A DNA stretch of 59,722 bases, from the NCBI GenBank assembly GCA_033722575.1, contig JAWVYU010000001.1, positions 1-59,722 of the forward strand, read 5' to 3'. The position numbers were made by a program, and so were the translations under genes. Position 1 is the first letter of the stretch; every line of letters starts with the position of its first letter. Below, piece by piece: positions 9,715 to 51,416 of this stretch. Below the pieces are notes generated by a model. That model did no database searches. It was not told the DNA's origin and saw only the letters and a program-made list of their open reading frames with translations. Source of the stretch: Ketobacteraceae bacterium (GTDB lineage Bacteria; Pseudomonadota; Gammaproteobacteria; Pseudomonadales; Ketobacteraceae).

Positions 9715-9767
9715 GCATACCGCCCCCAAGCCTGTCGAATACGGTGATTTTTGCCCGAATTCATAAA

Positions 9768-9783
9768 CTTAGCTAAGCTTAGC
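9768..9783. promoter_or_regulatory. overlapping perfect palindromes upstream of the hybrid kinase gene
   Basis: CTTAGCTAAGCTTAGC contains CTTAGCTAAG and GCTAAGCTTAGC, both self-complementary. It lies 50 nt upstream of the start at 9833. Confidence 0.3.
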
Positions 9784-9832
9784 GGGTAATTTTTTCTCCC
9801 CTCATCTTATCTAGGCGGGTACCCGGTCACTG

Positions 9833-29525: not shown

Positions 29526-29707
29526 GATCTAATACTGGTGGGAAGCATGGCGATTCGTTATTTGTCAGGCGTGATAAAACTTCGTTAGCCTATCAGTCAG
29601 GAGTGTGTGCGTTGCAATTTGCAGGGCCATTTTTGTTCAGGGAGATTCAGGGGGGCGGCGGTGTGCTGGGCGGACGGAAAACAGGGTTATCAGCGGAAGG
29701 AATTCAG

Positions 29708-33477: not shown

Positions 33478-33487
33478 CAAAGAAAAA

Positions 33488-33514
33488 GGGCGGGAGGCAT
33501 AATGCCACCCGCCC
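33488..33514. terminator. bidirectional intrinsic terminator hairpin between the PhzF-like gene and the CRTAC1-like gene
   Basis: GGGCGGGAGGCAT pairs with ATGCCACCCGCCC (one A/A mismatch). Flanked by AGAAAAA on the left, which gives a T-run for the minus-strand transcript, and TTTG on the right. Confidence 0.6.
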
Positions 33515-33541
33515 TTTGCGTGCTACTGCGTGAGTGCTTTG

Positions 33542-36271
33542 TTACTGATTGATCAGACTATACTGGTTTTTGGACAGCTGATAGGTCTCCACCTTTCCTT
33601 GTCCACACCAGTCAACCTGCAGTGAGACATGACCCGGGTACTGGTCCAGCCCGAACAGCAGACGCTGGTCGGATTGCGCTACCAGTCCGTTAGATGCCAT
33701 CACTTCACGATACTGCATGGGCAAATCCGTGGAATCTTCATACACCAGGGTGGCCTTGGTGCCCACTGCATCCCGGTTACAGGTAGTGCCGTTACCCACC
33801 AGTTTTACGCCGGCCCACTGCTTGTCTTTGGAATCGTTCCGGTAAATGCCCAGGGGAGCGAAGGGCTGTGATACCAGTACGTCCAGGTCACCATCGTTGT
33901 CGAGGTCGACGGTGGCAATACCACGGGCCACTTCGGTGTCGCTCCATCCCACCTGGTCTGCAGCATCCACGAAGTAATCGCCGGTGTTCAGATAAACCCG
34001 TTTCTTGTCGTGGGGATAGATACAACGGCCCCGCAGGTCTGCGTACCGGTCAGCATAGCTGTGGACTTCCGGGCCGGTGAGGGCAATCTTGTCATTCCAG
34101 TACCAGTAGTCCGGACAACCTTCATAAAGCTCGTCGTAATTGTCATTCACCATGCCGTTGGCCTGAAGAATATCCAGACGACCGTCACGGTCAATATCTG
34201 CCGCGGCTGCACCCCAGCCGAAACGGTTTTCATTCAGGGCGTTCAGTGCCATGGCACGGTCTTCCATACCGTAAGGGCCTTCGGTATCCAGCGTGCCCTT
34301 GTTAATCCACAGCATGGAGCCTTCTGCCTGGAGCGCCACGTGTACGTTGGATACATAAACATCCAGCAGGCCGTCGCTGTTGAAGTCTGCCATGGTGGCG
34401 TTCATGCCTTTATAGGTATCACGGCCCATTTCACCCACGAAGCGGCCTTTGAGTTGTTTGAACCTGCGGCCTTCTTCGCTGATAAACAGCTGATCGGGAC
34501 CAAAATCGTTGGCCAGGTAAATATCGGGCCATCCGTCTTTGTTCAGGTCACCTACGGCGTGGTCCAGAGTCCAGCGGGTACCGGTGTAACCCCAGGCTTC
34601 ATTATCCTGTGCCACGAATCCCTGGCCGTTGTTCAGGAAAATAATGTTTTCACCACCATTATCGGCGTTGTGCCAGGTGCGGTGCATGAAGTGTACGCCG
34701 CGACGGTCGCCTTCATATTCCGGCTCCGGCAGATCAAAAATATTGAAATAGCGGGTGTCTTCATAATCCGGGAATTTCACTTGCAATGAGTTGGCTACCA
34801 GCAGGTCCAGCAGACCATCCTGGTTCAGGTCAGCGGCAGTGGCGCTCATCGAGTTGGTGTAGGCTAATACGTTGGCTTCACCGGTTACATCAACAAAGCC
34901 GAGGGTGCCGGATTCACTCAGGGTGTTCTGCAGCAGGCGTCCGTAACCAAAACCGGTTACCACGTAAAGGTCCTTGTCGCCATCGTTGTCGTAGTCAAAC
35001 CACAGGCCGCCAGAGGGCAGGCCATTCTCGCGGAAATTCTTGACGTAATCGTTCAGCGCAGGCAGCGGGAAGCGCTCAAAGCTGAAGCCGCCATTGTTGA
35101 TATACAGCGCAACGCGGGCTTCCTGGGTTTTCAGCGGGTAGCTGATAAAGAAATCCTGGTCACCGTCGTTGTCAACATCCGCCACGGCTACGCCATCACC
35201 CTGTGCCAGTATCCACTTGCTGAGGTGCTGAACTCTCGGGTCTACCTGAGTCAGGGTATCACCCGGCTCCGAAAGAATACCCAGGGATTCCGCCTCGATC
35301 TTGGTGAATTTGAAGCCCGGATCGGCTACCGGACTGTAAGTGTGACCGATGTTATAGAGGGCAACGCCCATCAGGCCCACCAGCGGTATACCTGCCAGCC
35401 GGGGCAGATAGCCTTTGAAGCTGTCCATAAAAGAATGCTGCGGATTGTGCTTTTTGAATTCATACCAGCGATAGAAATACATCAGGCAGTAGAATACGAA
35501 GCCTGCCTTGAACAGGGTGGAAAGCGATTCGAACTTATGAAGTGCCAGATCGAAAAAGCTGATAAAAAAGGCCATGAAGATCTGTCCTTTGGTGGATCGC
35601 GGCGAGGTTGCGGGATCCGTAATCATAAAGAAGGTGAACAGATAGAAAGCCGGTGATGTAATGGTACCCATGATTATGGTTTCAGGGGGTACGTGGTGTT
35701 GCGTGATATAACCGCGAATAAAAAGCGTGAGGGTATAGAAACCCAGGAACGAAATAATCAGCGGATTTCGGTTAATCCGGAATACAAACAGGATTAGTGC
35801 AGCCGTTACCACAAACGCCGAGAAAGCGGTGTAGCCACCCCACTGATAGGCCGGAGCGGGACTGATCATTCCGCCCCCAATGGTCACTGCTGTTAACAGG
35901 CCAAACAGATTGGGGTTAAAAATATGCCGGCCATTCACGGTGATCAGATATTTTGATGCCACCGCGAAAAAGGCAGGAATCATCGGGAACCAGATACCGT
36001 GCGCGGTATTCACCAGTATGCTCAGACCAAAACCGGTAATGGCTGAGCTGAGAGGAAACAATACTTTCCGGCGGAAGATAATGGAAAATATTGTATCAAG
36101 GGCACAGGTAGTGCCCACGATCACAGCGATCTGGCCAAGGCTCCGGTTAAAGCCCAGGACGGTGACGCCCAGGATAACGTATGTTATCAGTATGGCGACA
36201 AATGGAAGACGAGGATCATTCCTGGTGGGAAATCGGTCCCAGGTGATCCCTCCGATGGTTGCGGCAGTCAT
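33542..36271 (-). CDS. membrane-anchored FG-GAP/VCBP-repeat protein, CRTAC1/ASPIC-UnbV type, with an RnfD/NqrB-like N-terminal membrane domain
   Basis: 909-aa ORF. About 330 aa of polytopic N-terminus containing GRHIFNPNLFG (RnfD/NqrB-like). Then seven Dx(D/N)xDGxxD blades (DVDNDGDQD, DYDNDGDKD, DLNQDGLLD, DLNKDGWPD, DFNSDGLLD, DIDRDGRLD, DLDNDGDLD). The tail is UnbV/ASPIC-like (NRDAVGTKATLVY...LLFGL). Confidence 0.7.
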   Translation of the reverse strand: MTAATIGGITWDRFPTRNDPRLPFVAILITYVILGVTVLGFNRSLGQIAVIVGTTCALDTIFSIIFRRKVLFPLSSAITGFGLSILVNTAHGIWFPMIPAFFAVASKYLITVNGRHIFNPNLFGLLTAVTIGGGMISPAPAYQWGGYTAFSAFVVTAALILFVFRINRNPLIISFLGFYTLTLFIRGYITQHHVPPETIIMGTITSPAFYLFTFFMITDPATSPRSTKGQIFMAFFISFFDLALHKFESLSTLFKAGFVFYCLMYFYRWYEFKKHNPQHSFMDSFKGYLPRLAGIPLVGLMGVALYNIGHTYSPVADPGFKFTKIEAESLGILSEPGDTLTQVDPRVQHLSKWILAQGDGVAVADVDNDGDQDFFISYPLKTQEARVALYINNGGFSFERFPLPALNDYVKNFRENGLPSGGLWFDYDNDGDKDLYVVTGFGYGRLLQNTLSESGTLGFVDVTGEANVLAYTNSMSATAADLNQDGLLDLLVANSLQVKFPDYEDTRYFNIFDLPEPEYEGDRRGVHFMHRTWHNADNGGENIIFLNNGQGFVAQDNEAWGYTGTRWTLDHAVGDLNKDGWPDIYLANDFGPDQLFISEEGRRFKQLKGRFVGEMGRDTYKGMNATMADFNSDGLLDVYVSNVHVALQAEGSMLWINKGTLDTEGPYGMEDRAMALNALNENRFGWGAAAADIDRDGRLDILQANGMVNDNYDELYEGCPDYWYWNDKIALTGPEVHSYADRYADLRGRCIYPHDKKRVYLNTGDYFVDAADQVGWSDTEVARGIATVDLDNDGDLDVLVSQPFAPLGIYRNDSKDKQWAGVKLVGNGTTCNRDAVGTKATLVYEDSTDLPMQYREVMASNGLVAQSDQRLLFGLDQYPGHVSLQVDWCGQGKVETYQLSKNQYSLINQ

Positions 36272-36311
36272 TTTCTTGCTCCTATAAGTTTAGGGTGATA
36301 AAGGGATTCAT

Positions 36312-37301
36312 TCATACAGTTCGGTTTGGCACAGAGTCGACAAATGCCTGAAACGGGTCTTTCGACCTGATTTCATTCATAAAACTGAACATCTCGACGT
36401 TGGTAATATTCCCGGTGGTTGTATCTGACAATCGCTTCTGGACTTCTGGCAGGTTATGCCAGGGCACTGCAGGGAACAGGTGGTGTTCTGTGTGCAGGTT
36501 GAAGTGATAACAGGTGATCGCCGATAACCAGGGGGGCATCAGCGCAGTACGGCAGTGGCTGTCCTGCTCATGCAAAGGCACCGCATCAGGGTGGGAGTCG
36601 CTGATGTAGGGGTACAGACCCGAGTGATGGGTCAGGTTAATGCATTCAAAAAAGATATAGAAAAAGATAAAAGCCGGTGCGATATAGGCCAGCGCGGATT
36701 CGCCCAGCAGAACAACGAGGCCCACCAGCGCTGCGGCGGTTATCAGGGTGGAGATCGCTCCGTACAGCGCGTTGCTGGTATTCCCGGCCCGCCATTGCTT
36801 GAACGGATACATCCAGAATGCCGCAACGACGCCCCCTAGTGCGGCCAATGGAATACGCAGCTTCCAGAGAACCAACAGCAGGTTCCGCATGATGGGGCCG
36901 TATTCCTTGATGGAGAGCAGGCCGACGGAGGTCGGGTCCTTGTCGACCACGCCAACCCACTTATGATGCTCGAAGTGGGCGTTGCGCCAGCAGAGGTAGG
37001 GTACGGCACACAAGCACCCGAAGAGGGTGCCGAACATGGTGTTGAGGCTTTTCTGACCGAACAGGGTGCCATGACCGCATTCATGAGTCAGCACAAAGCA
37101 GCGGAACAGGCTCAGGCCCAGCAGCGCCTGCAGTATCCAGTAGCCCGGTGAAAACAGTTCCACCAGCCACAAGCCATAAATAATCGCGGCCATCACGATC
37201 AGCTCTGTGGTGGTGGTGACGAACGCCCGGGTGTTGCTCTTGCGGAACAAGCCGTCAGACATCAGGGATTTTCGTATGGTTACATATTCTGCGCGGTTCA
37301 T
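36312..37301 (-). CDS. membrane fatty-acid desaturase family protein
   Basis: 329-aa ORF with three His boxes (HECGHGT, HFEHHKW, HTEHHLFP) and hydrophobic segments. Confidence 0.85.
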   Translation of the reverse strand: MNRAEYVTIRKSLMSDGLFRKSNTRAFVTTTTELIVMAAIIYGLWLVELFSPGYWILQALLGLSLFRCFVLTHECGHGTLFGQKSLNTMFGTLFGCLCAVPYLCWRNAHFEHHKWVGVVDKDPTSVGLLSIKEYGPIMRNLLLVLWKLRIPLAALGGVVAAFWMYPFKQWRAGNTSNALYGAISTLITAAALVGLVVLLGESALAYIAPAFIFFYIFFECINLTHHSGLYPYISDSHPDAVPLHEQDSHCRTALMPPWLSAITCYHFNLHTEHHLFPAVPWHNLPEVQKRLSDTTTGNITNVEMFSFMNEIRSKDPFQAFVDSVPNRTV

Positions 37302-37318
37302 GTGTCGTTTCCTTTCAA

Positions 37319-38449
37319 CTAGTGCAGCGCCATTTCAAAGCCAGGGTTTATGCTGGAAAAATTCTCGATATCAAAGCTGTGGTCATTACCCCGGAAGCCG
37401 TAAAGATCCATAGGTACCTTTTGCACTCTGAAACCGGATAAGCCTTTCTCCAGCTTGCTTTGCTGGGGCACGAATGCCGCGATAAAGTGATAATTCCTGC
37501 CGCGGTGGTGGTTGTAGATACCACGCAGCAGCTGATTCATCAGTTCCGGATCATCATTTTCAATTTCAAGATGAGTCAGCCCCAGCAGATTGAAACACTC
37601 CCCCGGTTTGGGCATGGGGGCATGGCCTCTCAGCCTGGCTTCAAGATCGATACCCTTGCGGATCAGCTTCATGGTTCCGCGGTAACCGTGCACCCTGCTG
37701 CGGCGCAGGCTGTCGGCGTTATTCCACGGGGCGGCACAGGCAACAATCTTTCCTTCCTTGTTCCTGATGGCAAAGAAATTGTTCACGCCGAAATCCGGCC
37801 AGCTTTCGATCCGGTTACGCAGCATGGCTTCATCTATAACAAAGCCGAAAGCTCTTTTTCTCGCCTGTTTCCCAAGAAATGCTGCCAGCTCGGGAATGTC
37901 GCTATCCTGTAACTGGTTCACTTCCAGCGTTTGCGGAATGGCACGGTTCAGTACCTGGAGGTTTACCATGTGATAAGGCGTTATCAGCGATGCGTTGGCC
38001 ATGCGCTGAGCGTACTGGGCGCTGGCATTGGAGCGCATGATGGAGAAATAGAACACATCAACCGGCTCTTGCCGTTTTATGTAGTCGATAAATATCGAAA
38101 TACTCTGGGGAAACACCTTGCCGCTGCGAAATCGCTCCGCCATGCGCAGGTCACAAAGGTATCCGATGGATTTTATTTCTCCGTTAAGCCAGCCTTTACG
38201 GACAACCACCGAGCAGCAGCCGGCAATGCGCTCCTGTTCGGCCAGGTTGTCGGACTTGTCTTCCAGCACTATGGTATAGGGGGTGCCGGAATGGAGTTTC
38301 CGCAGGGCGAAAAAATCCGGCTCACGCTCTTCAGTGAGAATCAGATCCGACGGCATACTGACACTGCGAAACAGTGCGCAGAGGCTGTCATTGTCCTCTG
38401 GTTGTGCGAGCCGCAGACGCCACTCCGGCTGGTCGAAGACTATATCCAA
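37319..38449 (-). CDS. hypothetical protein (possibly a GNAT-fold acyltransferase; unverified)
   Basis: 376-aa ORF. The TTG start lies inside the last codons of the Rieske gene. The N-terminal pattern RLRLAQPEDNDSLCALFRSV ... CCSVVVRKGWLNGEIKSIGYLCDLRMAERFRSGK is reminiscent of GNAT beta1-beta4/alpha3. I am not sure of any family assignment. Confidence 0.45.
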   Translation of the reverse strand: MDIVFDQPEWRLRLAQPEDNDSLCALFRSVSMPSDLILTEEREPDFFALRKLHSGTPYTIVLEDKSDNLAEQERIAGCCSVVVRKGWLNGEIKSIGYLCDLRMAERFRSGKVFPQSISIFIDYIKRQEPVDVFYFSIMRSNASAQYAQRMANASLITPYHMVNLQVLNRAIPQTLEVNQLQDSDIPELAAFLGKQARKRAFGFVIDEAMLRNRIESWPDFGVNNFFAIRNKEGKIVACAAPWNNADSLRRSRVHGYRGTMKLIRKGIDLEARLRGHAPMPKPGECFNLLGLTHLEIENDDPELMNQLLRGIYNHHRGRNYHFIAAFVPQQSKLEKGLSGFRVQKVPMDLYGFRGNDHSFDIENFSSINPGFEMALH

Positions 38450-39501
38450 AAGTCCATCTCCCGTTTCATGGGTTTGGGGCGTGGCCCCTCACAGCCGGAC
38501 TCTTCCCATTCCCGCAATGACTCGATAAACAGGTGCAATGTGTCAGCCGGCGTACTCTTGAAATCGGGCTCTTCTTCCTGCAGTGAGGCTCCCTGATTGG
38601 CCATGATCTCTACATCCTGCTCGATCACCTGACGGGTGTACCAGGGCAGCCAGTATTTCGCGGTGGGCTGCAATATGCCCAGGTTGTAACTGATGCATGT
38701 ATACACCTGGGATTTGAAGTCGCTGACAGGCGTGGAGGTGCTGGTAATCACAAAACCGCGCTCGTTGTTGCCAAACACATAGTCCACGCGGGTGTTGTTG
38801 GGCATATAGAAATTATCGGTGTGATAGAGCGGCAGTTTTTTGGGGTTCAGCAAGCGCTCTGCAAAACCAATGGCATCCTCTGTCTGGTCATAGGTCACCA
38901 GTACTGAATTTTCGGTGCGCTCAACGGTGGCTTTCACCAGCTTTTTGGTCCGGTCACGGAACCAGCCCTCGTGCACGAACACCGTATGAGGCACGTCCAT
39001 GAAATTCTCTGCCAGATGGGTAACGCCATTGTCGAATTCGGTGACCATGTAATAGGTTTTCCAGCCTTTTACGCCGTAAAACGGCATGGGGAAGGGCTTT
39101 TTCTCCGGATCGGGCTCCTTGCTTTCGCCCATCCAGACCCATACCAGTCCTTCCTGCTCGATAACGGGAAAACGCTCAACCTTGCGATTGGAAAAGGGCT
39201 TGCCGTTCTCACCCTCAGAGGGCACGTTCACGCAGTTGCCTTCGCTGTCGAAGGTCCAGCCGTGGTAAGGGCATTTGATGCAGTTTTTCTTGACTTTGCC
39301 TTCACTGAGGAAAACATTGCGGTGTGAACAGCGATCGCGCAGCACAGAGACTTCACCCTGTTTGTTGCGCCATAACACCAGCCGGGTCTCCAGAATGGTG
39401 CTGGAGTGGGGCTTGTCCACTTTCAAATCCTCTGATGTACAGGCAACGTACCAGTACTCGCGCAGTGCTCCAACGCGCTCTCTCATAGGAATCTTTTTCA
39501 T
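38440..39501 (-). CDS. Rieske [2Fe-2S] non-heme-iron oxygenase (alpha-subunit type, PAO/KshA-like)
   Basis: 353-aa ORF. Rieske motif CSHRNVFLSEGKVKKNCIKCPYHGW (CxH-x17-CxxH). Mononuclear iron motif ENFMDVPHTVFVH (E-x3-D-x2-H-x4-H). Confidence 0.85.
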   Translation of the reverse strand: MKKIPMRERVGALREYWYVACTSEDLKVDKPHSSTILETRLVLWRNKQGEVSVLRDRCSHRNVFLSEGKVKKNCIKCPYHGWTFDSEGNCVNVPSEGENGKPFSNRKVERFPVIEQEGLVWVWMGESKEPDPEKKPFPMPFYGVKGWKTYYMVTEFDNGVTHLAENFMDVPHTVFVHEGWFRDRTKKLVKATVERTENSVLVTYDQTEDAIGFAERLLNPKKLPLYHTDNFYMPNNTRVDYVFGNNERGFVITSTSTPVSDFKSQVYTCISYNLGILQPTAKYWLPWYTRQVIEQDVEIMANQGASLQEEEPDFKSTPADTLHLFIESLREWEESGCEGPRPKPMKREMDFWI

Positions 39502-41117
39502 AACTTACTACTCCGTAAAGAAAAAACCTGATGCCAGTCATAACGCGCATCCAGATGCGTTGGTTTGATGTCGCCGATCCGTTGACCCTTTGATGACAGG
39601 TGTTCCTGATATTGCTTCCAGCCTTCCTTAACGGGCTGGATATCCATCGGACCAAGCTGACCCCGCTGCCTGCAGTAGCTGTAGTGGTGGCCGGTTTCCA
39701 GGTACTGCTCCACAATGGTGGTGAATTCTTTCAGCTTTTCAGTGGGTCCGTCGGACTCAATAAAAAGTGTGTAGTGCAGAGGCGGCTTTTTGCGAGGGGC
39801 TATCAGGGCGAAGCGGGTATTGATACCGGTTTCGCGGCTGGCCAGTTTGATTGCCTTGTCCGCCTGGTTGGCGTGAATTTTTTCCCCGCAAAGATCACTC
39901 ACGCGATCCAGCTTGTTGACATAGGTCAGTTCCGGCGTATTGCGGCGGAAACCGGTGCACTCAACAATGTCTTTCAGGTGATACCGGTAGAGTCCGCCAG
40001 AGGTGGTAATAATGGGGGAATACACGCCGCCTCTTTCCAGCTCGTGTGCCAACCTGGGAGCCGCGCTTTCATTGTTAAGGTCAATGAACTCATAGAAATG
40101 GCTGTTCACTGCCAGCACACCACCGTGGCTGATAAGATCGGACTCTGCATCCTGAGGGGTCTTGTCCAGGGGTATGGTGATCACTCCCTCTGTGGCCAGT
40201 AAACCTTTCCCCTGAATAAATACCTCCGGAAAATAATCCCTCAGGCGCGTGCTGAAATCAGCGGAGATACCGTCACTCCAGCAGGAAATCACTTTAAGAT
40301 TGGGCCACAGGGTTTCACCGTTCACGCCAGAGCGGGAGCGGTCTATGGCGGTATACAACCGGCGCCGGGCGTCCCGCGGCAGATCCTCCGCCAGGGCGTC
40401 TGTGTTGGCCTGGATATATTCCATCAGGGCCAGCAGGAAAGTGGGGCTCCATACCGAGATAAAGCCAAGGTTTTTCTCCTGCAGAAGGTGCCTGCAGGTC
40501 TGGTGCTTCCATTCACGGTCACAGGTGATGTGCCGCACACTGGAGGGCACACAAAGCATCTGTTCAAGGGACCATTTGGCCACCGGATTGAAATACTCGG
40601 TTTCTTCCTCGAAGCCAACGGGCACACCGCCGGACGTGGTGGTTTCATTATGGGAAACCGGCGATACGGACCAGTAGGATTTGGTACCGATCAGACCCGG
40701 AATTCGTGTGTAAAGGTTGTGTAGCCAGGGGTTGGTGGCAGCAGAGAACTCGTCCAGCAGCGCCTGGGTATAAGGAATGTACTTGGTGGTCGATGTGGAT
40801 CCGCCGGAACGCTCCAGCATCATCACCGGGTCGGACGTCAGCACATTCTGGTAACCCGCACATATCTGCTGAATGTAGGGCTCGATATCATCGTAACCCA
40901 CCACCGGTACCTTTTTGCGGAATTCCGCAATGGAGCTTATGCCGGAAAAACCCAGCTTGCTGCCATAGACCGTGGCAGCATTCTTCGCCAGAACACGGTC
41001 AAGTTTCCGGGACTGAATGTCGGCGGGCTTTCTGATGGCACGGCTGTAGCGCCGTGAATCGCGCAGCAGGCTGGCGATGTAAGCCCTTTGCAGGACGCTC
41101 AGGATTGTACTGGCCAT
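39498..41117 (-). CDS. GH3-family adenylate-forming acyl-acid amido synthetase
   Basis: 539-aa ORF. GH3 motifs: ERSGGSTSTTKYIPYT (compare SSGTTxGxxKxIP), GLLATEG (compare YxSSE) and GGLYRYHLKDIVEC (compare GLYRYRxGDxV). The stop overlaps the Rieske start (ATGA). Confidence 0.85.
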   Translation of the reverse strand: MASTILSVLQRAYIASLLRDSRRYSRAIRKPADIQSRKLDRVLAKNAATVYGSKLGFSGISSIAEFRKKVPVVGYDDIEPYIQQICAGYQNVLTSDPVMMLERSGGSTSTTKYIPYTQALLDEFSAATNPWLHNLYTRIPGLIGTKSYWSVSPVSHNETTTSGGVPVGFEEETEYFNPVAKWSLEQMLCVPSSVRHITCDREWKHQTCRHLLQEKNLGFISVWSPTFLLALMEYIQANTDALAEDLPRDARRRLYTAIDRSRSGVNGETLWPNLKVISCWSDGISADFSTRLRDYFPEVFIQGKGLLATEGVITIPLDKTPQDAESDLISHGGVLAVNSHFYEFIDLNNESAAPRLAHELERGGVYSPIITTSGGLYRYHLKDIVECTGFRRNTPELTYVNKLDRVSDLCGEKIHANQADKAIKLASRETGINTRFALIAPRKKPPLHYTLFIESDGPTEKLKEFTTIVEQYLETGHHYSYCRQRGQLGPMDIQPVKEGWKQYQEHLSSKGQRIGDIKPTHLDARYDWHQVFSLRSSKL

Positions 41118-41896
41118 GGTTTCAGAATGGTCTCATTGAGTTTTTTGAATGACTTTTTCATGATTTTTGCGGGGTAGCTCAACGCCAGCGTCGCATCGAT
41201 CCGGCCGATGCAACAGAGCTCGTCGCCCTGGGCGTGGCCCTGGTTTTTCTCCAGAAAAAACCGGATATCGGCTTGGTTGAGCATGCTCTGGTCGATAGGC
41301 GCAATGCCGCCTTTCAGCTTGCCCATGGGTTGCTTGAAAGACAGTACACCTTTCTCTGGTATCCAGCTGTCGGCGAACATGGAGGTGGCAAGGTGGTTCA
41401 GAATCGCTTTTTCCTGAGCCGGGGTTGGCCGGTCATGGCGTGGCCAGTAATTGGGAAAGTTCCGACTGAGCAGCAAATAGGTTTTATAACCTTTGGAAAT
41501 AAGAAACCAGTACACATCCTTGGTGGGATGCTGCAACTTGGTTTTAATAATGTACCTGAAGAAGGTTTTCTGGAGGGCTGTCTGACCCCAGTAGGCTTCG
41601 TCAATAATGGTGTCGCCGGAATACACAGCAACAAAGTCTTTCCCGTTGACCGCGTCATCAAACACCTTCAGGGTGGAAAAGCCTTTCAGTTGACGAAGAT
41701 TCGGGTCGAACAGCAGGATGACATCTTTCTTGTTGGAAAGGTCTGACTCGAAGCGGCTGCGCTCGATATCCTCGTAGTAGTTTTTGAAAAGGTCCCACAT
41801 GGCTTCGATAAGCTCACGGTCAAGCGCGTCTACGGGGCAGACCCGTGCCTTGAGTGTTCCTGTCGATGTCGGATTGAGTGTTGTGGTGACAGCCAT
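41099..41896 (-). CDS. hypothetical protein, first gene of the GH3 operon
   Basis: 265-aa ORF with AGGAG 6 nt upstream of the ATG. It overlaps the GH3 start by 19 nt. No family recognised; FLISKGYKTYLLLSRNFPNYWPR is the most distinctive segment. Two 60-nt lines I counted by hand were 38% and 45% GC. Confidence 0.6.
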   Translation of the reverse strand: MAVTTTLNPTSTGTLKARVCPVDALDRELIEAMWDLFKNYYEDIERSRFESDLSNKKDVILLFDPNLRQLKGFSTLKVFDDAVNGKDFVAVYSGDTIIDEAYWGQTALQKTFFRYIIKTKLQHPTKDVYWFLISKGYKTYLLLSRNFPNYWPRHDRPTPAQEKAILNHLATSMFADSWIPEKGVLSFKQPMGKLKGGIAPIDQSMLNQADIRFFLEKNQGHAQGDELCCIGRIDATLALSYPAKIMKKSFKKLNETILKPWPVQS

Positions 41897-41925
41897 CAGC
41901 AGCTCCTATTTACCTTTCGTTCATG

Positions 41926-41945
41926 GTTTTCGGATATTCGAAAAC
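41926..41945. promoter_or_regulatory. 7-6-7 palindrome in the 5' region of the GH3 operon
   Basis: GTTTTCG (41926-41932), GATATT, then CGAAAAC (41939-41945). It lies 30-50 nt upstream of the 265-aa gene start on the minus strand. Confidence 0.35.
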
Positions 41946-42385
41946 GAAAATAAGGGTCACAGTCAGTGCTAAGTGCTATATGTTGAATGGTTTATCCAAA
42001 GCGCCGGATAAATATAACAAAAACCTTTAAAAAACTGGCTTTAAATACGGTTTAGTTTTGTAATTGGATTCAAATACTTCCATAAATCACTGATATATAT
42101 AAATTATATTTTCTTGCAGTTTAAAAAATACTCAATTTTTCGGTGTTGTGACCGGTAGTCCATTTACACGGAATTACAGTGGAATCATCATTTTCCATTT
42201 TTAATTGGTACTTTCGTTTAGAAAAGTTCCGTTGCGAAAAGTTGCAATGTTGTTCTTTTGTGAATATGTGAAAATTAGGTATGACATTCTAGGTTTTATC
42301 TATATGATTCCCCGCAATTGGCATAGGTCAAGTTAAGAGCCTGTGTTGACTGTTTTACCTCGCGCACACAATCAGAGCCTGATTA

Positions 42386-42430
42386 GCGCCCGTTTCCGGG
42401 TGGCCGACGGGCGTTTGTCTGTTTTTCATG
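42386..42430 (+). terminator. intrinsic-terminator-like hairpin plus T-tract in the leader of the methyltransferase operon
   Basis: CGCCCGT (42387-42393) pairs with ACGGGCG (42407-42413), with an inner CGG/CCG extension. TTTGTCTGTTTTT follows. It ends about 45 nt before the ICMT-like start. Confidence 0.45.
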
Positions 42431-42432
42431 AT

Positions 42433-42451
42433 CACCAGGCTGCGCCTGGTG
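42433..42451 (+). promoter_or_regulatory. second leader hairpin
   Basis: CACCAGGC (42433-42440), loop TGC, then GCCTGGTG (42444-42451). A perfect 8-bp stem. Confidence 0.4.
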
Positions 42452-42476
42452 GGCTGACTGCATCTTGGTGTGCGTT

Positions 42477-43055
42477 ATGGATCTTTCTCTTGTTGTTCTT
42501 ATAGAGGCATGTTTTTTATATGCCGGAACCCTGCCAGCAGTGTTTTTCAAGTCTGGCGCCAGGAAGAACCTGAAATGGTTTGTTTCCTGTATCCCCATGT
42601 TTGTGCTTCCGTTTCTGTTGCTGTTTCTGTTTTTTACCCGTGATGCGTACCCGCTGGAAGGCTGGCTGGCTTATGGCGCCACGATCCTGGCGGTGATCAG
42701 CTGCCTGGCATCGGTCCTGCTGATCAACTGGGCGGTGCTCACCCATGCCGAGCCGATACCGCTCTGGCATCAGGAATCGCACCAGATGCCGTCCACCATT
42801 ATTGTTAGCGGCCCCTACGGAGTGGTCAGACACCCGTTCTATCTGGCCTACATACTGCTTTACTTTGCGACCTTCCTGGCAACCCTTCACTGGTTGGCTG
42901 CGGCATTACTCATTTGGGGTATTGCGGCCAACTATCTCACTGCCAGAAAAGAAGAGCTGACCATTATGGCATCCGGTATTGCCGCTGATTACGGTCAGTA
43001 CCGGGAGCGGGTCGGCATGTTATTTCCAAAACTCAGCCGTAGTCGGAGGGCATGA
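42477..43055 (+). CDS. ICMT/PEMT-family integral-membrane carboxyl methyltransferase
   Basis: Polytopic ORF of about 192 aa from the ATG at 42477; the tracked ORF starts at a TTG at 42465. The C-terminal GPYGVVRHPFYLAYILLYF matches the RHPxY motif of isoprenylcysteine carboxyl / phospholipid methyltransferase-like enzymes. Confidence 0.72.
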   Translation: MDLSLVVLIEACFLYAGTLPAVFFKSGARKNLKWFVSCIPMFVLPFLLLFLFFTRDAYPLEGWLAYGATILAVISCLASVLLINWAVLTHAEPIPLWHQESHQMPSTIIVSGPYGVVRHPFYLAYILLYFATFLATLHWLAAALLIWGIAANYLTARKEELTIMASGIAADYGQYRERVGMLFPKLSRSRRA

Positions 43056-44401
43056 TGGCACAGCCAACAATGACGTTTGTACCCAAGGAAAACAGGGAAC
43101 TTCCGCAGATACCCGGAAGCTGGGGCATGCCTGTTTTTGGTAATACCTTTTCCTATATGAAAGACAGCGTGGCCTGGTCTCACAAGAATTACGAGATGTA
43201 TGGCCCGGTATTCAAGGTGAATGCCTTTTTCCTGAAAGGTGCAGTGGCCCTGGGGCCTGAAGCACTTCAGTTTGTATTGCAGGACAAAGAGGGCAATTTC
43301 TCAACCGCCCTGGGCTGGGCGCCTTTCTTCCACAAACTCTTTCCCAGCAGCCTGCCCATGCGGGATGGTGACGACCACCGTTTCAACCGCAGAATCGTTC
43401 AGGAGGCCTTCAAGAAAGAAGCCATGACCGGTTACGTGGACGTGATCAACCCGGTGGTGGATCGTCAGTTGCAGGAGTGGAAGAGCCAGGAGACTTTTCT
43501 CTTCTACCCCCAGATCAAGGCGCTGGCACTGAATGTATCGGCTGCTGTGTTTATGGGGCTGGATCTTGGGGAAGAGGCCGACAAGGCCAATAAGGCGTTA
43601 CTTGATCTGGTGGCGGCCGTGGGTGCGGTTTTTCATCGCGAGGTGCCGTTTCTCAAGTTCAGAAAAGGCATGAATGGGCGCCGCTATCTGTGTGAGCTGC
43701 TGATGCCGTTTATCGAAGACAAAAAGAAAGTGGCCCCCAAAGATCTGTTCGGGCACCTGTGTCATGCAAAAACCGAAGAGGGCGACGCCTTCAGCCATCA
43801 GGAAATCGTGGATCATACCATTGCTATCATGTTTGCATCCCACGACACCACCACCAGCATTCTGACCTCCATGGCCTACTGGATGGCACGCTACCCCGAG
43901 TGGCAGGACAAAGTTCGGGAAGAGTGCCTGGGTCTCGGCAAGCCTTTTATCCATTACGATGATCTTGACGATATGCAGGTGATGGAATGGGTGTTTAAAG
44001 AAGGCCTGCGCCTGAATCCTCCGGTGGATCTTGCCCAGCGCCGTGCCGTGCGTGACTGCGAATTACTTGGCTACCACATTCCCAAGGATACCATCGTGAT
44101 GGCAGGGATCGGCTTTACCCACCGTATGAAAGATTACTGGAAAGAACCTGAGAGGTTCGATCCCACCCGCTTTGCCCCGGGCAGAGAAGAAGATAAACAG
44201 CATCCGTTTTTATGGTCACCCTTCGGTGGTGGCGCCCATAAGTGCATCGGTATGCACTTTGCGTATATGAACGTTAAAGCCATCATGCACCAATTGCTGA
44301 CCCGTTACCGGTTCGAGCTGCCCTGCGACCCTGAAGTGAAATTCCAGGCCATACCGGTCAAGCCGCGGAACAATCTGCCTTTCCGGGTAGTGCCATTGTA
44401 A
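43052..44401 (+). CDS. cytochrome P450
   Basis: 449-aa ORF. I-helix AIMFASHDTTTS, ExxR (KEGLRL), heme loop FGGGAHKCIGMHFA. The N-terminal LPQIPGSWGMPVFGNTFSYM and C-terminal KPRNNLPFRV resemble CYP120/CYP26-type soluble P450s as I remember them (weak). The start overlaps the methyltransferase stop (ATGA). Confidence 0.9.
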   Translation: MMAQPTMTFVPKENRELPQIPGSWGMPVFGNTFSYMKDSVAWSHKNYEMYGPVFKVNAFFLKGAVALGPEALQFVLQDKEGNFSTALGWAPFFHKLFPSSLPMRDGDDHRFNRRIVQEAFKKEAMTGYVDVINPVVDRQLQEWKSQETFLFYPQIKALALNVSAAVFMGLDLGEEADKANKALLDLVAAVGAVFHREVPFLKFRKGMNGRRYLCELLMPFIEDKKKVAPKDLFGHLCHAKTEEGDAFSHQEIVDHTIAIMFASHDTTTSILTSMAYWMARYPEWQDKVREECLGLGKPFIHYDDLDDMQVMEWVFKEGLRLNPPVDLAQRRAVRDCELLGYHIPKDTIVMAGIGFTHRMKDYWKEPERFDPTRFAPGREEDKQHPFLWSPFGGGAHKCIGMHFAYMNVKAIMHQLLTRYRFELPCDPEVKFQAIPVKPRNNLPFRVVPL

Positions 44402-44428
44402 GCAGCCGCTACAGGTAACGGGTGAACC

Positions 44429-45946
44429 ATGAACAGCTTTGATGAGTATGTGGACTATGATGCTGCCGGTCTGGCAGAACTGGTTGCCAGGGGCGAGCTA
44501 TCGCCTCTGGATATGGTTAAGGCCGCAGGGTGCCAGATTGACAAATGGAATCCCCGGATCAATGCGCTGACTTTCCATGATGCCAGGCAGGCTGCGGAAT
44601 ACGCAGACCGGAAGGATCTTTCCGGGACTGATTACAAAGGCGTGCCCTTTCTGGTGAAGGACCTGGTGACAGAGGTGAAGGGCTTTCCCCATACCTGTGG
44701 GAGCAAGGCGCTGGCTTCCTATGTTTCGGCCGAAGACTGCGAACTGGTGAAACGTTACCGTCAGGCGGGTTTCAATATTATGGGCGCTACCAATACAGCG
44801 GAGTTCGGCTTGTTGCCGGTGACCGAATCGGCCCACACAGGCGTCACCAGAAACCCCTGGAACACCGAATGCAACGCCGGTGGCTCCTCCGGAGGTGCCG
44901 CTGCGGCTGTCGCCTGCGGCATCGTGCCGGTGGCTGGCGCCACCGATGGGGGTGGTTCCATTCGCATCCCTGCGGCCTTTACCGGCACCTTTGGTTTCAA
45001 GCCCAGTCGTGGTCTGGTACCGCAGGATCCCATGGGTGAGCCCTGGGACGGCGCGGCCGTAACCCATGTGATCTCCCGGACCGTGCGTGACTCTTTTCAG
45101 GTACTGAATAAAACCCTGGGAATGACGGCATCGGCACCCTACGCACCTGTATCCGGCATCGAATCCGGCAATAAGGCTCTATCGCCTCGCGGTAAAAAAA
45201 TAGGTGTCTGCTTTACGTCGCCTTTATCCATGCCGGTATCGGAAAATAACCTGAAAGCACTGAGGAAGTGTGTGGCTGCGCTTGAAGCCAGGGGCTACGA
45301 GATTGTAGAAATAGACCGGTTGTATAATGGTTACGACCTGCTGGACAGCTTCTGCCCCGTGTTGTTCGGTCAGGTATCGGCGGATCTGCAAACCATTGGG
45401 GCGAAGCTGGGCAAGCCAGTTACCCGAAAAGATGTGGAGCCTGCCACCTGGCTGATTTCCGAGATTGGCCGGCATGTTTCGGCCCGTGATTTCGCCCTGG
45501 CCAAACAGCGTTGGGCGGAATTCCGCTTATTGATGGCAACCTATTTTTGCGAGTATGACTTTATTCTCACGCCGGTGACAGCGATCGATGCGCCACTGAA
45601 TGGTGAACTGGTACCGGACCCGGCTGAGCTCAAGGCCCTGAAATTCGTCAGCGCCATAAAGCTGGAGCGCTACCTGCCCAACAGTCGGCAATTCCGGGAA
45701 AACTTTTACCAGTCTTTTGAGCCATTTCCTTTTACGCTGATGGCTAATATCACAGGCATTCCTGCATTTTCAGCGCCTGTCTGGGTTGATGGGTCTGATA
45801 TGCCCTCTGCTGTTCAGGCCATGGGGCCCATTGGCTCCGATGCGGAGCTGATGAATCTGGCGCTGACAATTGAGCAGGAACTGCCCTGGATTGATACCTA
45901 TAAACGACTGCACCAATTGACAGATAACCAAGAGAAACCAGCATGA
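44429..45946 (+). CDS. amidase-signature family amidase
   Basis: 505-aa ORF with GGSSGGAAAAVA and the catalytic Lys context VPFLVKDL. It is a paralogue of gatA in this window. Confidence 0.9.
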   Translation: MNSFDEYVDYDAAGLAELVARGELSPLDMVKAAGCQIDKWNPRINALTFHDARQAAEYADRKDLSGTDYKGVPFLVKDLVTEVKGFPHTCGSKALASYVSAEDCELVKRYRQAGFNIMGATNTAEFGLLPVTESAHTGVTRNPWNTECNAGGSSGGAAAAVACGIVPVAGATDGGGSIRIPAAFTGTFGFKPSRGLVPQDPMGEPWDGAAVTHVISRTVRDSFQVLNKTLGMTASAPYAPVSGIESGNKALSPRGKKIGVCFTSPLSMPVSENNLKALRKCVAALEARGYEIVEIDRLYNGYDLLDSFCPVLFGQVSADLQTIGAKLGKPVTRKDVEPATWLISEIGRHVSARDFALAKQRWAEFRLLMATYFCEYDFILTPVTAIDAPLNGELVPDPAELKALKFVSAIKLERYLPNSRQFRENFYQSFEPFPFTLMANITGIPAFSAPVWVDGSDMPSAVQAMGPIGSDAELMNLALTIEQELPWIDTYKRLHQLTDNQEKPA

Positions 45947-46755
45947 GATATTTGTTCAGCCTGATGTTTGTGTTGGGTGCCGTGATTTCTGCGCCTTCAA
46001 TGGCCCAGACGGCGGAGCAAAAAGCGCTTGATATCGCCAGACAGGCGGACAAGCAGGATACCGGCTATGTGGATGAAAGAGTTGATGTGGACATGATCCT
46101 GATCCACAACTCCGGTAAAAAACTGACGCGGGAATCCCACTGGCGGATCAAGGAGCGTCGCACCGACGGTGATATGCGCCTGTATGTATTTCACAGCCCT
46201 GAAGATCAGCGGGGGGCGGCAATTCTTTCCCATGGTCATATCGACAGGGCGGACGACCAGTGGATATACCTGCCCAGCCTGGGGCGCTCCCTGATGATCA
46301 GTAACGAAAACCGGTCCGGATCATTTGTTGGCAGTGAGTTTTCCTATGAAGATATTAATTCACAGGAGATTCCCAAGTTTGAATGGCGTTATCTGCGGGA
46401 AGATACTCTGCGGGGTCGCAAGGTTCACGTTTCAGAGCGTCGCCCCAGGGATCCCTTCTCCGGTTACAGCAAGCAGCACTTATGGGTTGACCAGGAAAAC
46501 CTGTATACCATGCGGATTGAAAGTTTTGACCGCAAAGGCACGCATTTCAAAACCGCAGAAATTACCGGATGGAAGCTCCTGCAGGGATTCTGGCGGCAGG
46601 CGAAAATAGAAATGACCAATCATATCAATAAAAACGTATCCATACTGGAGTTCAGTAACCGGTCGATCAATACCGGGCTTGAAGCGGAAGAGTTTTCTGT
46701 AGAGGGATTCGCGACCGGTGAAACATTATTTACCAGGGGAAGAGGCGGGAAATAA
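45943..46755 (+). CDS. periplasmic LolA-like outer-membrane lipoprotein-sorting-type protein
   Basis: 270-aa ORF with a Sec signal peptide (MRYLFSLMFVLGAVISAPSMA/QT). The size and the position directly upstream of COG1033 RND genes are typical of the LolA-like partners of such exporters. The start overlaps the amidase stop (ATGA). Confidence 0.55.
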   Translation: MRYLFSLMFVLGAVISAPSMAQTAEQKALDIARQADKQDTGYVDERVDVDMILIHNSGKKLTRESHWRIKERRTDGDMRLYVFHSPEDQRGAAILSHGHIDRADDQWIYLPSLGRSLMISNENRSGSFVGSEFSYEDINSQEIPKFEWRYLREDTLRGRKVHVSERRPRDPFSGYSKQHLWVDQENLYTMRIESFDRKGTHFKTAEITGWKLLQGFWRQAKIEMTNHINKNVSILEFSNRSINTGLEAEEFSVEGFATGETLFTRGRGGK

Positions 46756-46756
46756 T

Positions 46757-49030
46757 ATGGTAGACAATATTGCACAATACCTTGTAGACAAGCGAAAGCT
46801 GCTGTTCTGGGTTTCCCTGCTGGTTGTAACACTGATTGCAGTGGGTGCAAAAAATATCTGGATACAGAGCGATTACAAGGCCTTTTTCTCGGACACTAAC
46901 CCGCAACTGCTGGCCCATCGTAATATTCAGGATACCTACACCGATACGGATAACCTGTTGTTTATTGTTGATGCCAAAGGCCAGTCCGTATTTTCAGAGC
47001 AAGGCCTGGACCTGGTGGGGGACATCACGGAAAAAGCCTGGACAACGCCCTACTCATTGCGGGTGGATTCGGTAACCAATTACCAGTACAGCTATGGCGA
47101 TGAAGACGAGCTGATAGTGGAAGCGCTGCTGGACATTGGTGGCGGTGATAATCCGGACTATCAGAAAATCAGAAACATCGCCCTGAGTGAACCCCTGCTG
47201 AGAAACAATCTGATATCGCCGGATGGCACGGTCACCGCAGTTAATGTGATGCTGGGGCTGCCGGACCCTGCGGACATGGCAGTGCGGGAAGTGGTTGCCT
47301 ACGGCCGCGATATCGTCAGCTCTCTCGAAGAGAAGTACCCCGGATTTGATATTTATCTGCAGGGTACTGCTGCAGTGAACCATGCGTTCATTGAATCCTC
47401 GGAAAAAGACGCCATGACCCTTATGCCGGTGATGTTCATGGTGATTCTGATTATCCTGGTACTCTGGTTGCGTTCGGTAAAGGGCACGTTGATCACCTTG
47501 CTGGTCATTAATTTAAGCTCCGCAGTGGCGGTGGGTTTTTGTGGCTGGCTGAATATTGCCATCAACCAGATTAATGTCATTGCCCCCACGGTGATAATGA
47601 CGCTGGCTATTTGCGACTGCGTTCACCTGCTGGTGTCCTATTTTGAAAGGCTCAGTCACGGCATGGAACCGGAAGCGGCCATGAAGGAAAGCCTGACTGC
47701 CAACCTCCAGCCGGTGTTTCTGACCAGCTTTACTACCGCCATCGGTTTTCTTTGCATCAATTTCAGTGAGTCACCGCCACTGGCGGAAATGGGAACCATC
47801 ACGGCCGTTGGTGTCATTGCCGCGTTCTGGCTGTCGGTAGCGCTGATTCCGTTCCTGGGAATCAGGTTTATCAAAGGGTCCAACGGGGTTAACCCGGCCG
47901 CTTCAAAAGTGGTTACTGCCTTTTCCGGTTTTCTGTTGCGGCATAAAAACCCCGTGTTCTGGGTAACGCTGCTGGTTTCCGCTTTGCTGGTAACTTTCCT
48001 GTTCAGAAATGATATCGATGATAACTACATCAAGTATTTCAGCCACGATACGGAAATCAGGCAGGCTGCGCAGTTTACCCAGGATAACCTGACTGGTATT
48101 GATACCCTGGCGTTTTCGTTCTCCAGTGGCAAGGAGAATGGGATTGCCAATCCGGAGTTTCTTGAAGCGGTGCAGGCTTTCGTAACCTGGGCCCAAGCCC
48201 AGCCGGAAGTGGTGCATGTGGACAGCTACATTGACATACTGAAGCGCCTGAACAAGATCATGCACGGTGACCAGGCCGAATGGTACCGGATTCCGGATGA
48301 GCGGGAGCTGGCATCACAGTATACCCTGCTGTATGAATTATCCCTGCCGTTCGGGCTGGACCTCAACAATCAGATCAGTTTCGATAAATCCTCACTGCTG
48401 GTTAATCTGCGGCTGAAAGTGGATAAAGCCAAGGAGATCATTGCACTTGATGAGCGTGCTGGGGAATGGCTGAAAACGAACTATCCGGAGATACATACCA
48501 ACGGAGCGAGCGTTTCGCTGATGTTTGCCCATCTGGGCAAGAGCAATATTTCCAATATGATGTACGGCAATGTGGTGGGTATTCTGCTGATCAGCCTGAC
48601 GCTGATGCTGGCCCTGCGCTCTTTCAAATATGGGCTGATCAGCCTGTTGCCCAATGCCATGCCTGCCGCCGTTGCCCTGGGATTGTGGGGTATCTTTGTG
48701 GCAGAAGTGAATATTGCGGTGGCAGTGGTGTTCTCCGTTACCCTGGGTATTGTGGTGGACGATACCGTGCACTTTCTCTCCAAATATATCAAGGCACGCC
48801 GGGATCTGGGCAAGTCTTCCGAAGAGTCGGTGGTCTATGCCTTTGAACAGGTGGGCAAGGCGCTGGTGATTACATCCGTGGTACTGGCCATCGGCTTCTT
48901 TGTGCTGGCGCTGTCAGACTTTACCGTGAACAGCTCAATGGGCCTGATGGTGGGTGTCACCATTATTGTTGCCCTGCTGTTTGATTTCCTGTTTTTACCG
49001 ACATTGCTGATGAAAGTGGATCGAAAATAG
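46757..49030 (+). CDS. RND-superfamily exporter, COG1033/MMPL (HpnN-like) type
   Basis: 757 aa from the ATG at 46757, one nt after the LolA-like stop. Two blocks of about 6 TM helices each follow a periplasmic domain. Conserved LGIVVDDTVHF in the last TM bundle. Confidence 0.8.
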   Translation: MVDNIAQYLVDKRKLLFWVSLLVVTLIAVGAKNIWIQSDYKAFFSDTNPQLLAHRNIQDTYTDTDNLLFIVDAKGQSVFSEQGLDLVGDITEKAWTTPYSLRVDSVTNYQYSYGDEDELIVEALLDIGGGDNPDYQKIRNIALSEPLLRNNLISPDGTVTAVNVMLGLPDPADMAVREVVAYGRDIVSSLEEKYPGFDIYLQGTAAVNHAFIESSEKDAMTLMPVMFMVILIILVLWLRSVKGTLITLLVINLSSAVAVGFCGWLNIAINQINVIAPTVIMTLAICDCVHLLVSYFERLSHGMEPEAAMKESLTANLQPVFLTSFTTAIGFLCINFSESPPLAEMGTITAVGVIAAFWLSVALIPFLGIRFIKGSNGVNPAASKVVTAFSGFLLRHKNPVFWVTLLVSALLVTFLFRNDIDDNYIKYFSHDTEIRQAAQFTQDNLTGIDTLAFSFSSGKENGIANPEFLEAVQAFVTWAQAQPEVVHVDSYIDILKRLNKIMHGDQAEWYRIPDERELASQYTLLYELSLPFGLDLNNQISFDKSSLLVNLRLKVDKAKEIIALDERAGEWLKTNYPEIHTNGASVSLMFAHLGKSNISNMMYGNVVGILLISLTLMLALRSFKYGLISLLPNAMPAAVALGLWGIFVAEVNIAVAVVFSVTLGIVVDDTVHFLSKYIKARRDLGKSSEESVVYAFEQVGKALVITSVVLAIGFFVLALSDFTVNSSMGLMVGVTIIVALLFDFLFLPTLLMKVDRK

Positions 49031-51325: not shown

Positions 51326-51379
51326 GGCTTGAAAGAGAAGGTATGAAATCGAAGGGATAAAAGAGTGGGGCAGCAGAAA

Positions 51380-51399
51380 GGGAGGGGAATTCCCCTCCC
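51380..51399. terminator. perfect 20-bp palindrome between the RND gene and sodB
   Basis: GGGAGGGGAATTCCCCTCCC. The flanking T-tracts are poor (CTTTCT on the minus-strand side only). Confidence 0.35.
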
Positions 51400-51416
51400 A
51401 GCGGTATAACGGGGAA

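Follow-up and report, generated by a model that had tools for sequence, protein, structure and literature searches.

To our knowledge, no role was known for a bacterial GH3 enzyme until 2025, and OlsH of Singulisphaera acidiphila (UniProt L0DAW6) is still the only bacterial member of this family to have been characterised. OlsH ligates a free fatty acid to ornithine in a reaction that depends on adenosine triphosphate (ATP) and needs neither coenzyme A nor acyl carrier protein, and this ligation is the first step of a membrane-lipid pathway (PMC12493201). The authors of that work predict that other bacterial GH3 homologues will make other N-acyl amino acids (PMC12493201; review PMC12971839). 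Here we describe a GH3 gene and its neighbours in a 59,722-nt stretch of DNA from a Ketobacteraceae bacterium (contig JAWVYU010000001.1; the whole stretch is referred to as the window), in which they form an inserted island of 12 genes. The gene content of this island, its co-inheritance, its conserved partnerships and the domain fusions found among its relatives are direct observations. On balance we consider it about an even chance that the island is a mobile gene set that makes, tailors and exports an oxidised, amide-linked (N-acyl) lipid.

The OlsH/OlsI system is the closest that has been characterised, and in both cases a bacterial GH3 shares an operon with acyl-transferring and lipid-modifying enzymes. 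The island GH3 is, however, not an OlsH equivalog (48.1 bits against a cut-off of 620), and the island has neither an α/β-hydrolase of the OlsI type (no Pfam match in the 12 proteins, of which the two left unassigned fold as GNATs) nor an N-methyltransferase of the OlsG type. This GH3 is accompanied instead by a novel GNAT-like protein and a tandem GNAT resembling N-myristoyltransferase (NMT), by two oxidative enzymes (a Rieske oxygenase and a desaturase), and by an RnfD/FG-GAP protein and RND exporters of its own. A second point of comparison is provided by the orphan "Rieske-containing" clusters of cyanobacteria, which are carrier-protein-free and combine several Rieske genes with sterol-desaturase/fatty-acid-hydroxylase, acyltransferase and desaturase genes (Eusebio et al. 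2021, PMC8406957). Fatty-acid-derived substrates were proposed for these clusters, no product is known, and the main text of that paper does not mention GH3 (PMC8406957). Compared by description, the enzyme classes are similar to those found here, and in the window's own genus a paralogous GH3 cluster combines a ferredoxin, a fatty-acid hydroxylase and an MMPL pump with three Rieske genes; the window, on the other hand, lacks a CylC-type halogenase. Literature searches returned no characterised example of this gene combination, and by analogy with the systems above the locus appears to be a variant of GH3-dependent amide-lipid biosynthesis, equipped with its own export machinery, that has not been characterised before.

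The 12 genes span positions 33542–51325 and are organised as two divergent, tightly packed operons with overlaps of 4 to 38 nt. Comparison by blastn with the complete genome of another member of the genus (G003) defined the island as a 17.9-kb insertion (33459–51412) located between a PhzF-like gene and sodB. Window positions 56969–51413 and 33458–33028 are colinear with G003, in which only about 160 bp lie between them, and the PhzF-like gene and the sodB/mgtE flanks are likewise colinear between the two genomes. The insertion matches exactly the 12 genes and is also absent from a second genome of the genus (G001), where about 1.1 kb stands in its place. All 12 genes recur in the same order and orientation, with 44–74% identity, in a genome from another genus of the same family (G008, contig L001). 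There they lie on a 132-kb contig that does not carry the mgtE gene of G008, and the PhzF-like gene has no match in G008; the G008 island occupies a different genomic place from that of the window. Given one indel and the synteny shared with G008, the 12 genes were co-inherited as one unit, in line with the sequence-only reading in so far as it placed GH3, the amidase, the P450 and the methyltransferase in one locus. In a phylogenetic tree the island amidases of the window and G008 are sister lineages (98/99 support) on long branches, apart from a paralogue that is present family-wide, and this relationship together with the synteny indicates that the amidase, the P450 and the methyltransferase truly belong to the island. 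Sequence comparison points to a single evolutionary event behind the two islands.

At the centre of the minus-strand operon is the gene for a predicted GH3-family ATP-dependent acyl-acid:amine ligase of 539 residues (39498–41117, minus strand). Its N, M and C domains score 155.4, 65.9 and 52.5 bits (PF03321, PF23571 and PF23572) against a cut-off of 23.6, and plant GH3 structures match it with E values of 1e-25 to 1e-16. The three GH3 motifs that had been claimed for this protein are all present. The nucleotide-binding motif 1, SGGSTSTTK, aligns to SSGTSAGERK of the plant enzymes, motif 2 reads KGLLATEG, and motif 3, YRYHLKD, retains the Asp with the canonical Gly replaced. Residues G106, K112, T309, E310, R378, Y379, D383 and K518 do not vary among 12 homologues. 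The cultured bacterium Haliangium ochraceum DSM 14365 carries a related cluster, and its GH3 is 48% identical. More generally, the long open reading frames that had been read from sequence as GH3, Rieske oxygenase, membrane methyltransferase-like protein, P450 and amidase were found where they had been placed, and all of them apart from the methyltransferase clear the Pfam gathering thresholds by a wide margin. The same range (38440–45946) also holds an open reading frame for a 265-residue protein (41099–41896, minus strand), which was left out of that account, as was the 376-residue protein encoded further along the operon.

The 265-residue protein is encoded by the first gene of the minus operon, overlapping the start of the GH3 gene by 19 nt, and has no Pfam or NCBIfam match. 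The 376-residue protein encoded two genes downstream of GH3 (37319–38449, minus strand) has no Pfam match either. Sequence-profile searches of both against the PDB gave only GNAT matches at E≥0.1, and for this reason their classification rests on fold. The AlphaFold models have pLDDT values of 87.4 and 86.9, respectively, and Atlas look-ups independently gave a GNAT lead for both proteins. The model of the smaller protein adopts a GNAT fold with an insertion, with a Foldseek E value of 3e-07 to AAC(2') and NatD and VIA Z scores of about 12–13. The larger one consists of two GNAT domains, and its fold matches that of NMT over most of the chain (Foldseek E 4e-14, TM 0.60–0.65; VIA Z 23.1, root-mean-square deviation 3.6 Å over 314 aligned residues). 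NMT uses its C-terminal carboxylate as the base. All ten homologues of the 376-residue protein stop at the same alignment column, four residues past an invariant Glu, and this fixed-length C-terminus recalls the NMT arrangement in addition to the shared tandem-GNAT fold. The sequence identity to NMT is, however, only 9–12%, and other tandem GNATs score within 2–4 Z units of it (Z 17–21.5 overall, with MAB_4324 at 21.5, alongside glucosamine N-acetyltransferases and Eis). From the models both proteins are predicted to be acyltransferases.

The remaining genes of the minus operon encode enzymes of oxidation and a membrane protein. A Rieske [2Fe-2S] non-haem-iron oxygenase of the VanA/DdmC/SxtT/KshA type (38440–39501, minus strand, 353 residues) matches the Rieske and VanA_C families with 92 and 38 bits and contains the CxH...CxxH motif at residue 58. 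The protein of the membrane fatty-acid desaturase/hydroxylase family (36312–37301, minus strand, 329 residues; PF00487, 136 bits) has its His boxes at residues 73, 109 and 266; it had been named as part of the locus and does belong to the same operon, but it lies outside the range 38440–45946 that had been given. The last gene of the operon (33542–36271, minus strand) encodes a 909-residue protein in which Pfam identifies an RnfD/NqrB-like polytopic membrane domain, with six transmembrane (TM)-like segments, fused to an FG-GAP/UnbV-ASPIC β-propeller of seven blades. This fusion recurs with the GH3 core at 41–69% identity in Pseudomonadota and Bacteriovoracaceae.

In order to establish which of these genes are steady partners of GH3, we examined 29 foreign GH3 loci from Pseudomonadota, Bdellovibrionota, Victivallales, Anaerolineae, Thermotogaceae, Verrucomicrobia, Obscuribacterales, Balneolales and a metagenome-assembled genome (MAG) labelled as Woesearchaeota, and counted the loci that hold a relative of a given window protein. 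The 265-residue GNAT-like protein is encoded next to GH3 in 26 of the 29, the Rieske oxygenase is present in 17 and the tandem GNAT in 16, followed by an MMPL exporter in 8, the desaturase in 7 and the RnfD/FG-GAP fusion in 5. The other genes of the plus operon are rarer: the amidase was found in 2 loci, in one of which it stands 6 kb from the core with 29% identity, and the P450, the methyltransferase and the LolA-like protein in 1 locus each. One further locus has a P450 fragment match beside GH3, which is unrelated (26% identity). Loci from distant and mostly anaerobic phyla show the triad of GNAT-like protein, GH3 and tandem GNAT beside 2–4 genes for B12-binding radical-SAM enzymes, with the oxygenases replaced, and the B12-radical-SAM set resembles an oxygen-independent equivalent of the tailoring enzymes. 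With two acyltransferases, an exporter, and either oxygenases or radical-SAM enzymes as its steady partners, GH3 shows a biosynthetic pattern. One of the 29 loci, the archaeon-labelled L009 (CAYIBE010000002.1, Candidatus Woesearchaeota archaeon), has the genes for GH3, the GNAT-like protein and the tandem GNAT alongside two B12-radical-SAM genes; either this triad was transferred to an archaeon or the contig was binned wrongly.

Domain fusions repeat the same partnerships. Among the top hits of the family profile of the 265-residue protein, this GNAT-like domain is fused to GH3 (P0385 and P0390), to an MMPL pump (P0252), to an RnfD/FG-GAP/UnbV protein (P0342), to PAP2 and a desaturase (P0260) and to a JmjC/cupin oxygenase (P0246). 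Taken together, these fusion partners recapitulate the genes of the minus operon and add an exporter. No fusion of this domain to an amidase, a P450 or a methyltransferase was found among these hits. The family is large, with 896 cluster representatives at E≤1e-30. Prediction of a complex between GH3 and the 265-residue protein gave a score of 0.01, which carries no verdict and was used neither way.

The first gene of the plus-strand operon encodes a membrane protein of 196 residues (42465–43055, plus strand) that overlaps the P450 gene by 4 nt. It had been described as a membrane enzyme of the carboxyl-methyltransferase type; four TM-like segments were found in it, and the family assignment depends on sub-threshold matches to PEMT and ICMT. 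The PEMT family gives 23.6 bits (cut-off 25) and the NCBIfam model for isoprenylcysteine O-methyltransferase 44.2 (cut-off 160), with MddA and LmtA lower, and the carboxyl-methyltransferase label for this four-TM protein is plausible on these matches. In a related genus, five genomes encode homologues (33–37% identity) that form the N-terminal part of a fusion with an MMPL pump. The fusion protein of 1020 residues (L052:8322–11384, G011:C25, and four sister genomes) has a methyltransferase domain that scores 23.5 against the ICMT cut-off of 24, and its gene neighbours encode an AMP-ligase, KAS III, a fatty-acyl reductase and an AurF-like diiron oxygenase; the cluster is a candidate for a separate lipid-export system. 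The fusion suggests that methylation is tied to the cargo of a pump and to lipid export, rather than to the formation of a volatile or inactive ester.

The second gene of the operon (43052–44401, plus strand) encodes a soluble cytochrome P450 of 449 residues (PF00067, 240 bits) with the haem loop FGGGAHKCIG at 394 and ExxR at 317 and 365. The resemblance to CYP120 noticed from its termini is borne out over nearly the whole chain, in that CYP120A1 (2ve3) is its best solved relative (E 4.5e-55, 191 bits, residues 11–444), ahead of CYP725A4 (154 bits) and CYP51 (141 bits). Among 400 genomes of the class that were searched, none outside the host genome (G000) had an orthologue with more than 44% identity. 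At least three or four CYP120-like paralogues with 39–46% identity are encoded elsewhere in G000 (contigs C148, C91, C177 and C446). Outside the island, the host genome also has six or more additional genes for MMPL/HAE3 pumps and at least another two for LolA-like proteins, an unusual expansion of genes for handling lipids or other hydrophobic compounds.

The P450 gene is followed by that for an amidase-signature enzyme of 505 residues (44429–45946, plus strand; PF01425, 268 bits). Here the proposal of an amide-cleaving enzyme agrees well with an intact Lys-cisSer-Ser triad, formed by K77 in FLVKD, GGSSGG at 151–156 and S177 in GGGSIRIP. The protein has no signal peptide and is predicted to be cytoplasmic. 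The catalytic motifs of GH3, the Rieske protein, the desaturase and the P450 are intact as well. The operon continues with a gene for a LolA-like protein of 270 residues, predicted to be periplasmic from an N-terminal signal-like segment (45943–46755, plus strand; PF17131, 169 bits), and ends with two tandem RND exporters of the MMPL/HAE3 type (46718–51325, plus strand, with the boundary at 49030/49031). These consist of 770 and 764 residues and match PF03176 with 144 and 105 bits. Each has two PF03176 stretches and ten TM-like segments, sterol-sensing-domain matches were obtained as well, and the duplicated MMPL domain in proteins of about 770 residues places them in the MMPL/HAE3 RND class; the match to the HAE3 subfamily model TIGR00921 (156 bits against a cut-off of 352) and that to an HpnN-like NCBIfam model remain below the cut-offs.

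The uneven distribution of the two operons raises the possibility that two independent modules travel together, the minus operon as a GH3/GNAT lipid pathway and the plus operon for the uptake, detoxification or efflux of hydrophobic amides or acids. In keeping with this, 28 of the 29 foreign loci lack the P450, the methyltransferase and the LolA-like protein and 27 lack the amidase, and the host genome holds at least three CYP120-like P450s, an amidase paralogue, at least six MMPL pumps and two LolA-like genes outside the island. The host is an uncultured marine bacterium; among named organisms, those closest to it are marine bacteria of the Ketobacter type (about 70% identity of MgtE), and such a function would suit a member of the Pseudomonadales resembling hydrocarbon degraders. 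The one sequencing data set found to contain its DNA is a tidal-flat metagenome, from which the genome was probably assembled, and no RNA data set was listed as containing it. Both arms were, however, gained or lost in a single indel and remain divergently arranged in the same way in the genus of G008, an MMPL pump stands beside the core in 8 of the 29 loci and is fused to the GNAT-like domain in P0252, and the island amidases form a fast-evolving clade of their own, apart from the housekeeping paralogue. We therefore regard two independent modules as unlikely.

A catabolic or salvage route was also considered, in which RND/LolA-like proteins would take up exogenous amide lipids or oxidised fatty acids, the amidase would cleave them, the P450, the Rieske oxygenase and the desaturase would oxidise them, and GH3 would re-activate the acid set free. 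The best solved relatives of the amidase, NylA and an aryl acylamidase, are catabolic enzymes, the island is dense in oxygenases, and the host lineage is related to alkane degraders. Nevertheless GH3 and the two GNAT acyltransferases form bonds, and HAE3/MMPL pumps are generally known, where characterised, as exporters. Pfam scans of the island's proteins found no β-oxidation genes, dehydrogenases or catabolic regulator, and the core sits with B12-radical-SAM genes in other phyla, a combination typical of biosynthetic tailoring. In view of these points the catabolic route seems highly improbable.

The sequence-only reading had compared the island with the control of plant hormone conjugates. 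In plants, the GH3 enzymes JAR1 and the auxin GH3s act together with the M20 amidohydrolases ILR1 and IAR3, CYP94 enzymes and SABATH methyltransferases. The likeness consists in a GH3 of the same Pfam family with neighbours for amide hydrolysis, P450 oxidation and, probably, carboxyl methylation, which together would carry out the same formal reactions. In contrast to the plant set, the island amidase belongs to the amidase-signature family (PF01425) and not to M20, and the methyltransferase is a membrane protein of the ICMT/PEMT type and not a SABATH enzyme, just as that reading had allowed in calling neither a plant-type protein; the P450 is nearest to CYP120 among solved relatives. The set is moreover kept with the GH3 clade in only 1 of the 29 loci, and the island embeds it among genes for biosynthesis and export with no signalling component. 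A carboxylic acid or lipid as the substrate is a reasonable suggestion because the amidase is cytoplasmic like GH3 and falls in the superfamily of fatty-acid amide hydrolase (FAAH), which it matches at 3e-22. The proposed control by conjugation, deconjugation, oxidation and methylation finds no support in the comparison of loci, with the quartet of enzymes present in 1 of the 29 foreign loci.

In its full form this comparison would make GH3, the amidase, the P450 and the methyltransferase a reversible circuit that sets the level of an active carboxylic-acid signal, as the conjugates of auxin and jasmonate do in plants. The four enzymes are co-inherited, their catalytic motifs were all reported intact, and GH3 and the amidase, the latter with its tie to the FAAH superfamily, are both predicted to be cytoplasmic. 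The quartet is found in two genomes only, however, and these share one ancestral island, in which Pfam scans of the encoded proteins detected no regulator or receptor gene. Such a circuit also makes no use of the constant partners of GH3, the acyltransferases and exporters, and in relatives the methyltransferase family is physically fused to exporters. The amidase and the methyltransferase are not homologous to the plant enzymes, and the comparison of the P450 with solved relatives, in which CYP120 is nearest, showed no specific tie to CYP94. We consider a signal circuit of this kind very unlikely; the hormone-homeostasis comparison is a formal analogy drawn on one lineage-specific arrangement and is not needed to explain the gene order.

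For the synthesis, tailoring and export of an N-acyl lipid, we infer the substrates, the order of the steps and the product throughout, and the scheme that best accommodates the data runs as follows. From the chemistry of the family and the precedent of OlsH, GH3 would adenylate a carboxylic acid, for which a fatty acid is the likeliest candidate, and join it to an amine. The 265-residue GNAT-like protein and the NMT-like tandem GNAT may then add or transfer further acyl groups, and the Rieske oxygenase and the membrane desaturase/hydroxylase would oxidise the chain, while the RnfD/FG-GAP membrane protein may have some role in the envelope. The plus operon would supply lineage-specific late steps ahead of the export machinery: the ICMT-like enzyme may methylate a free carboxylate of the membrane-bound product, the CYP120-like P450 may hydroxylate it, and the amidase may trim or edit an amide. 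Finally, the LolA-like carrier and the two RND pumps would carry the product across the envelope.

An isoprenoid or steroid acid was considered as an alternative substrate in view of the SdmA/KshA-like Rieske protein, the CrtW-like desaturase, the CYP120/CYP51-like P450 and the sterol-sensing-domain pumps. No family match to a squalene/phytoene synthase or a squalene-hopene cyclase was found in the host genome, which is 93.5% complete, and a fatty-acyl acid is favoured over an isoprenoid acid for this reason; the isoprenoid or steroid acid was ranked below it.

Several observations weigh against the biosynthetic scheme. The assignment of a lipid product is made by analogy and from the membrane and lipid character of the neighbouring genes, because the island GH3 is far from OlsH and an OlsI-type α/β-hydrolase is missing; the match to the OlsH equivalog model NF052613 covers only residues 21–127, and its 48.1 bits stand against the required 620. 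A hydrolytic amidase is odd in a purely biosynthetic route. Pfam scans found no acyl-activating enzyme, carrier protein or electron-transfer partner in the island, and the link of the amidase, the P450 and the methyltransferase to the core depends on one inherited arrangement.

A more elaborate version of the scheme would find a place for the amidase by supposing that the amide lipid is actively edited. The amidase would reverse or proof-read the ligation by GH3, and the methyltransferase would cap the carboxylate at the handover to the RND exporters, giving a circuit that makes, unmakes and masks a lipid signal or an outer-membrane lipid, convergent with the control of plant hormone conjugates. 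GH3 and the 265-residue protein might in addition act as a two-part amide synthase, a suggestion based on their fusion in some organisms. We regard this version as distinctly improbable.

The interest of the biosynthetic scheme lies mainly in the GH3 clade to which the island enzyme belongs. This clade is separate from OlsH and extends over many phyla and one archaeon-labelled MAG, with about 900 partner clusters at E≤1e-30. It is rare among the genomes sampled: a GH3 match at E≤1e-50 was found in 3 of 400 genomes of the phylum and in 12 of 24 genomes of the window's family, and only four or five of the latter contain close orthologues. Since the clade is wired to a different set of enzymes and to its own exporters, it should make a class of amide lipids that has not been described, and as judged from sequence the core appears to represent novel biochemistry. 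With its amidase, P450 and carboxyl-methyltransferase-like enzyme as additions to this core, the window offers a natural variant that is informative on the structure of the product and its late modifications. The fusions of GH3 with the GNAT-like domain and of the methyltransferase with MMPL pumps suggest enzyme partnerships that can be tested, and the outcome for the plant-hormone analogy is mainly negative.

Related gene sets and neighbouring features were noted in the course of this work. The 568-bp spacer between the two operons (41897–42464) has no Rfam match, and the promoter/terminator scan found weak promoter-like sites only (3 against 1.4 expected), which is not usefully above chance. 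Just outside the island, positions 29603–32653 encode a protein of 1016 residues with NMT1/THI5-like periplasmic-binding, PAS, GGDEF and EAL domains; this gene is kept in the same-genus genome and so does not belong to the insertion. The window's genus and family also contain paralogous GH3 clusters with about 31–33% identity (L030 at G001:C334:2200–22000, L031, L047 and L048). In the first of these, genes for an SDR, a GMC oxidoreductase, a fatty-acid hydroxylase and a hexapeptide transferase accompany three Rieske genes and one for a 2Fe-2S ferredoxin. The cluster also encodes an MMPL pump, an SBF bile-acid-type symporter and two proteins (330 and 409 residues) without a Pfam family. Finally, contig C74 of the host genome carries, at about 2052–10197, a second, partial module in which only about 670 bp separate a divergent MMPL gene from genes for a Rieske oxygenase, a tandem GNAT and an RnfD/FG-GAP fusion (62, 41 and 69% identity, respectively). 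It has no GH3 gene and no gene for the 265-residue GNAT-like protein, and it resembles a cluster of the type found in G020 minus the GH3 pair.

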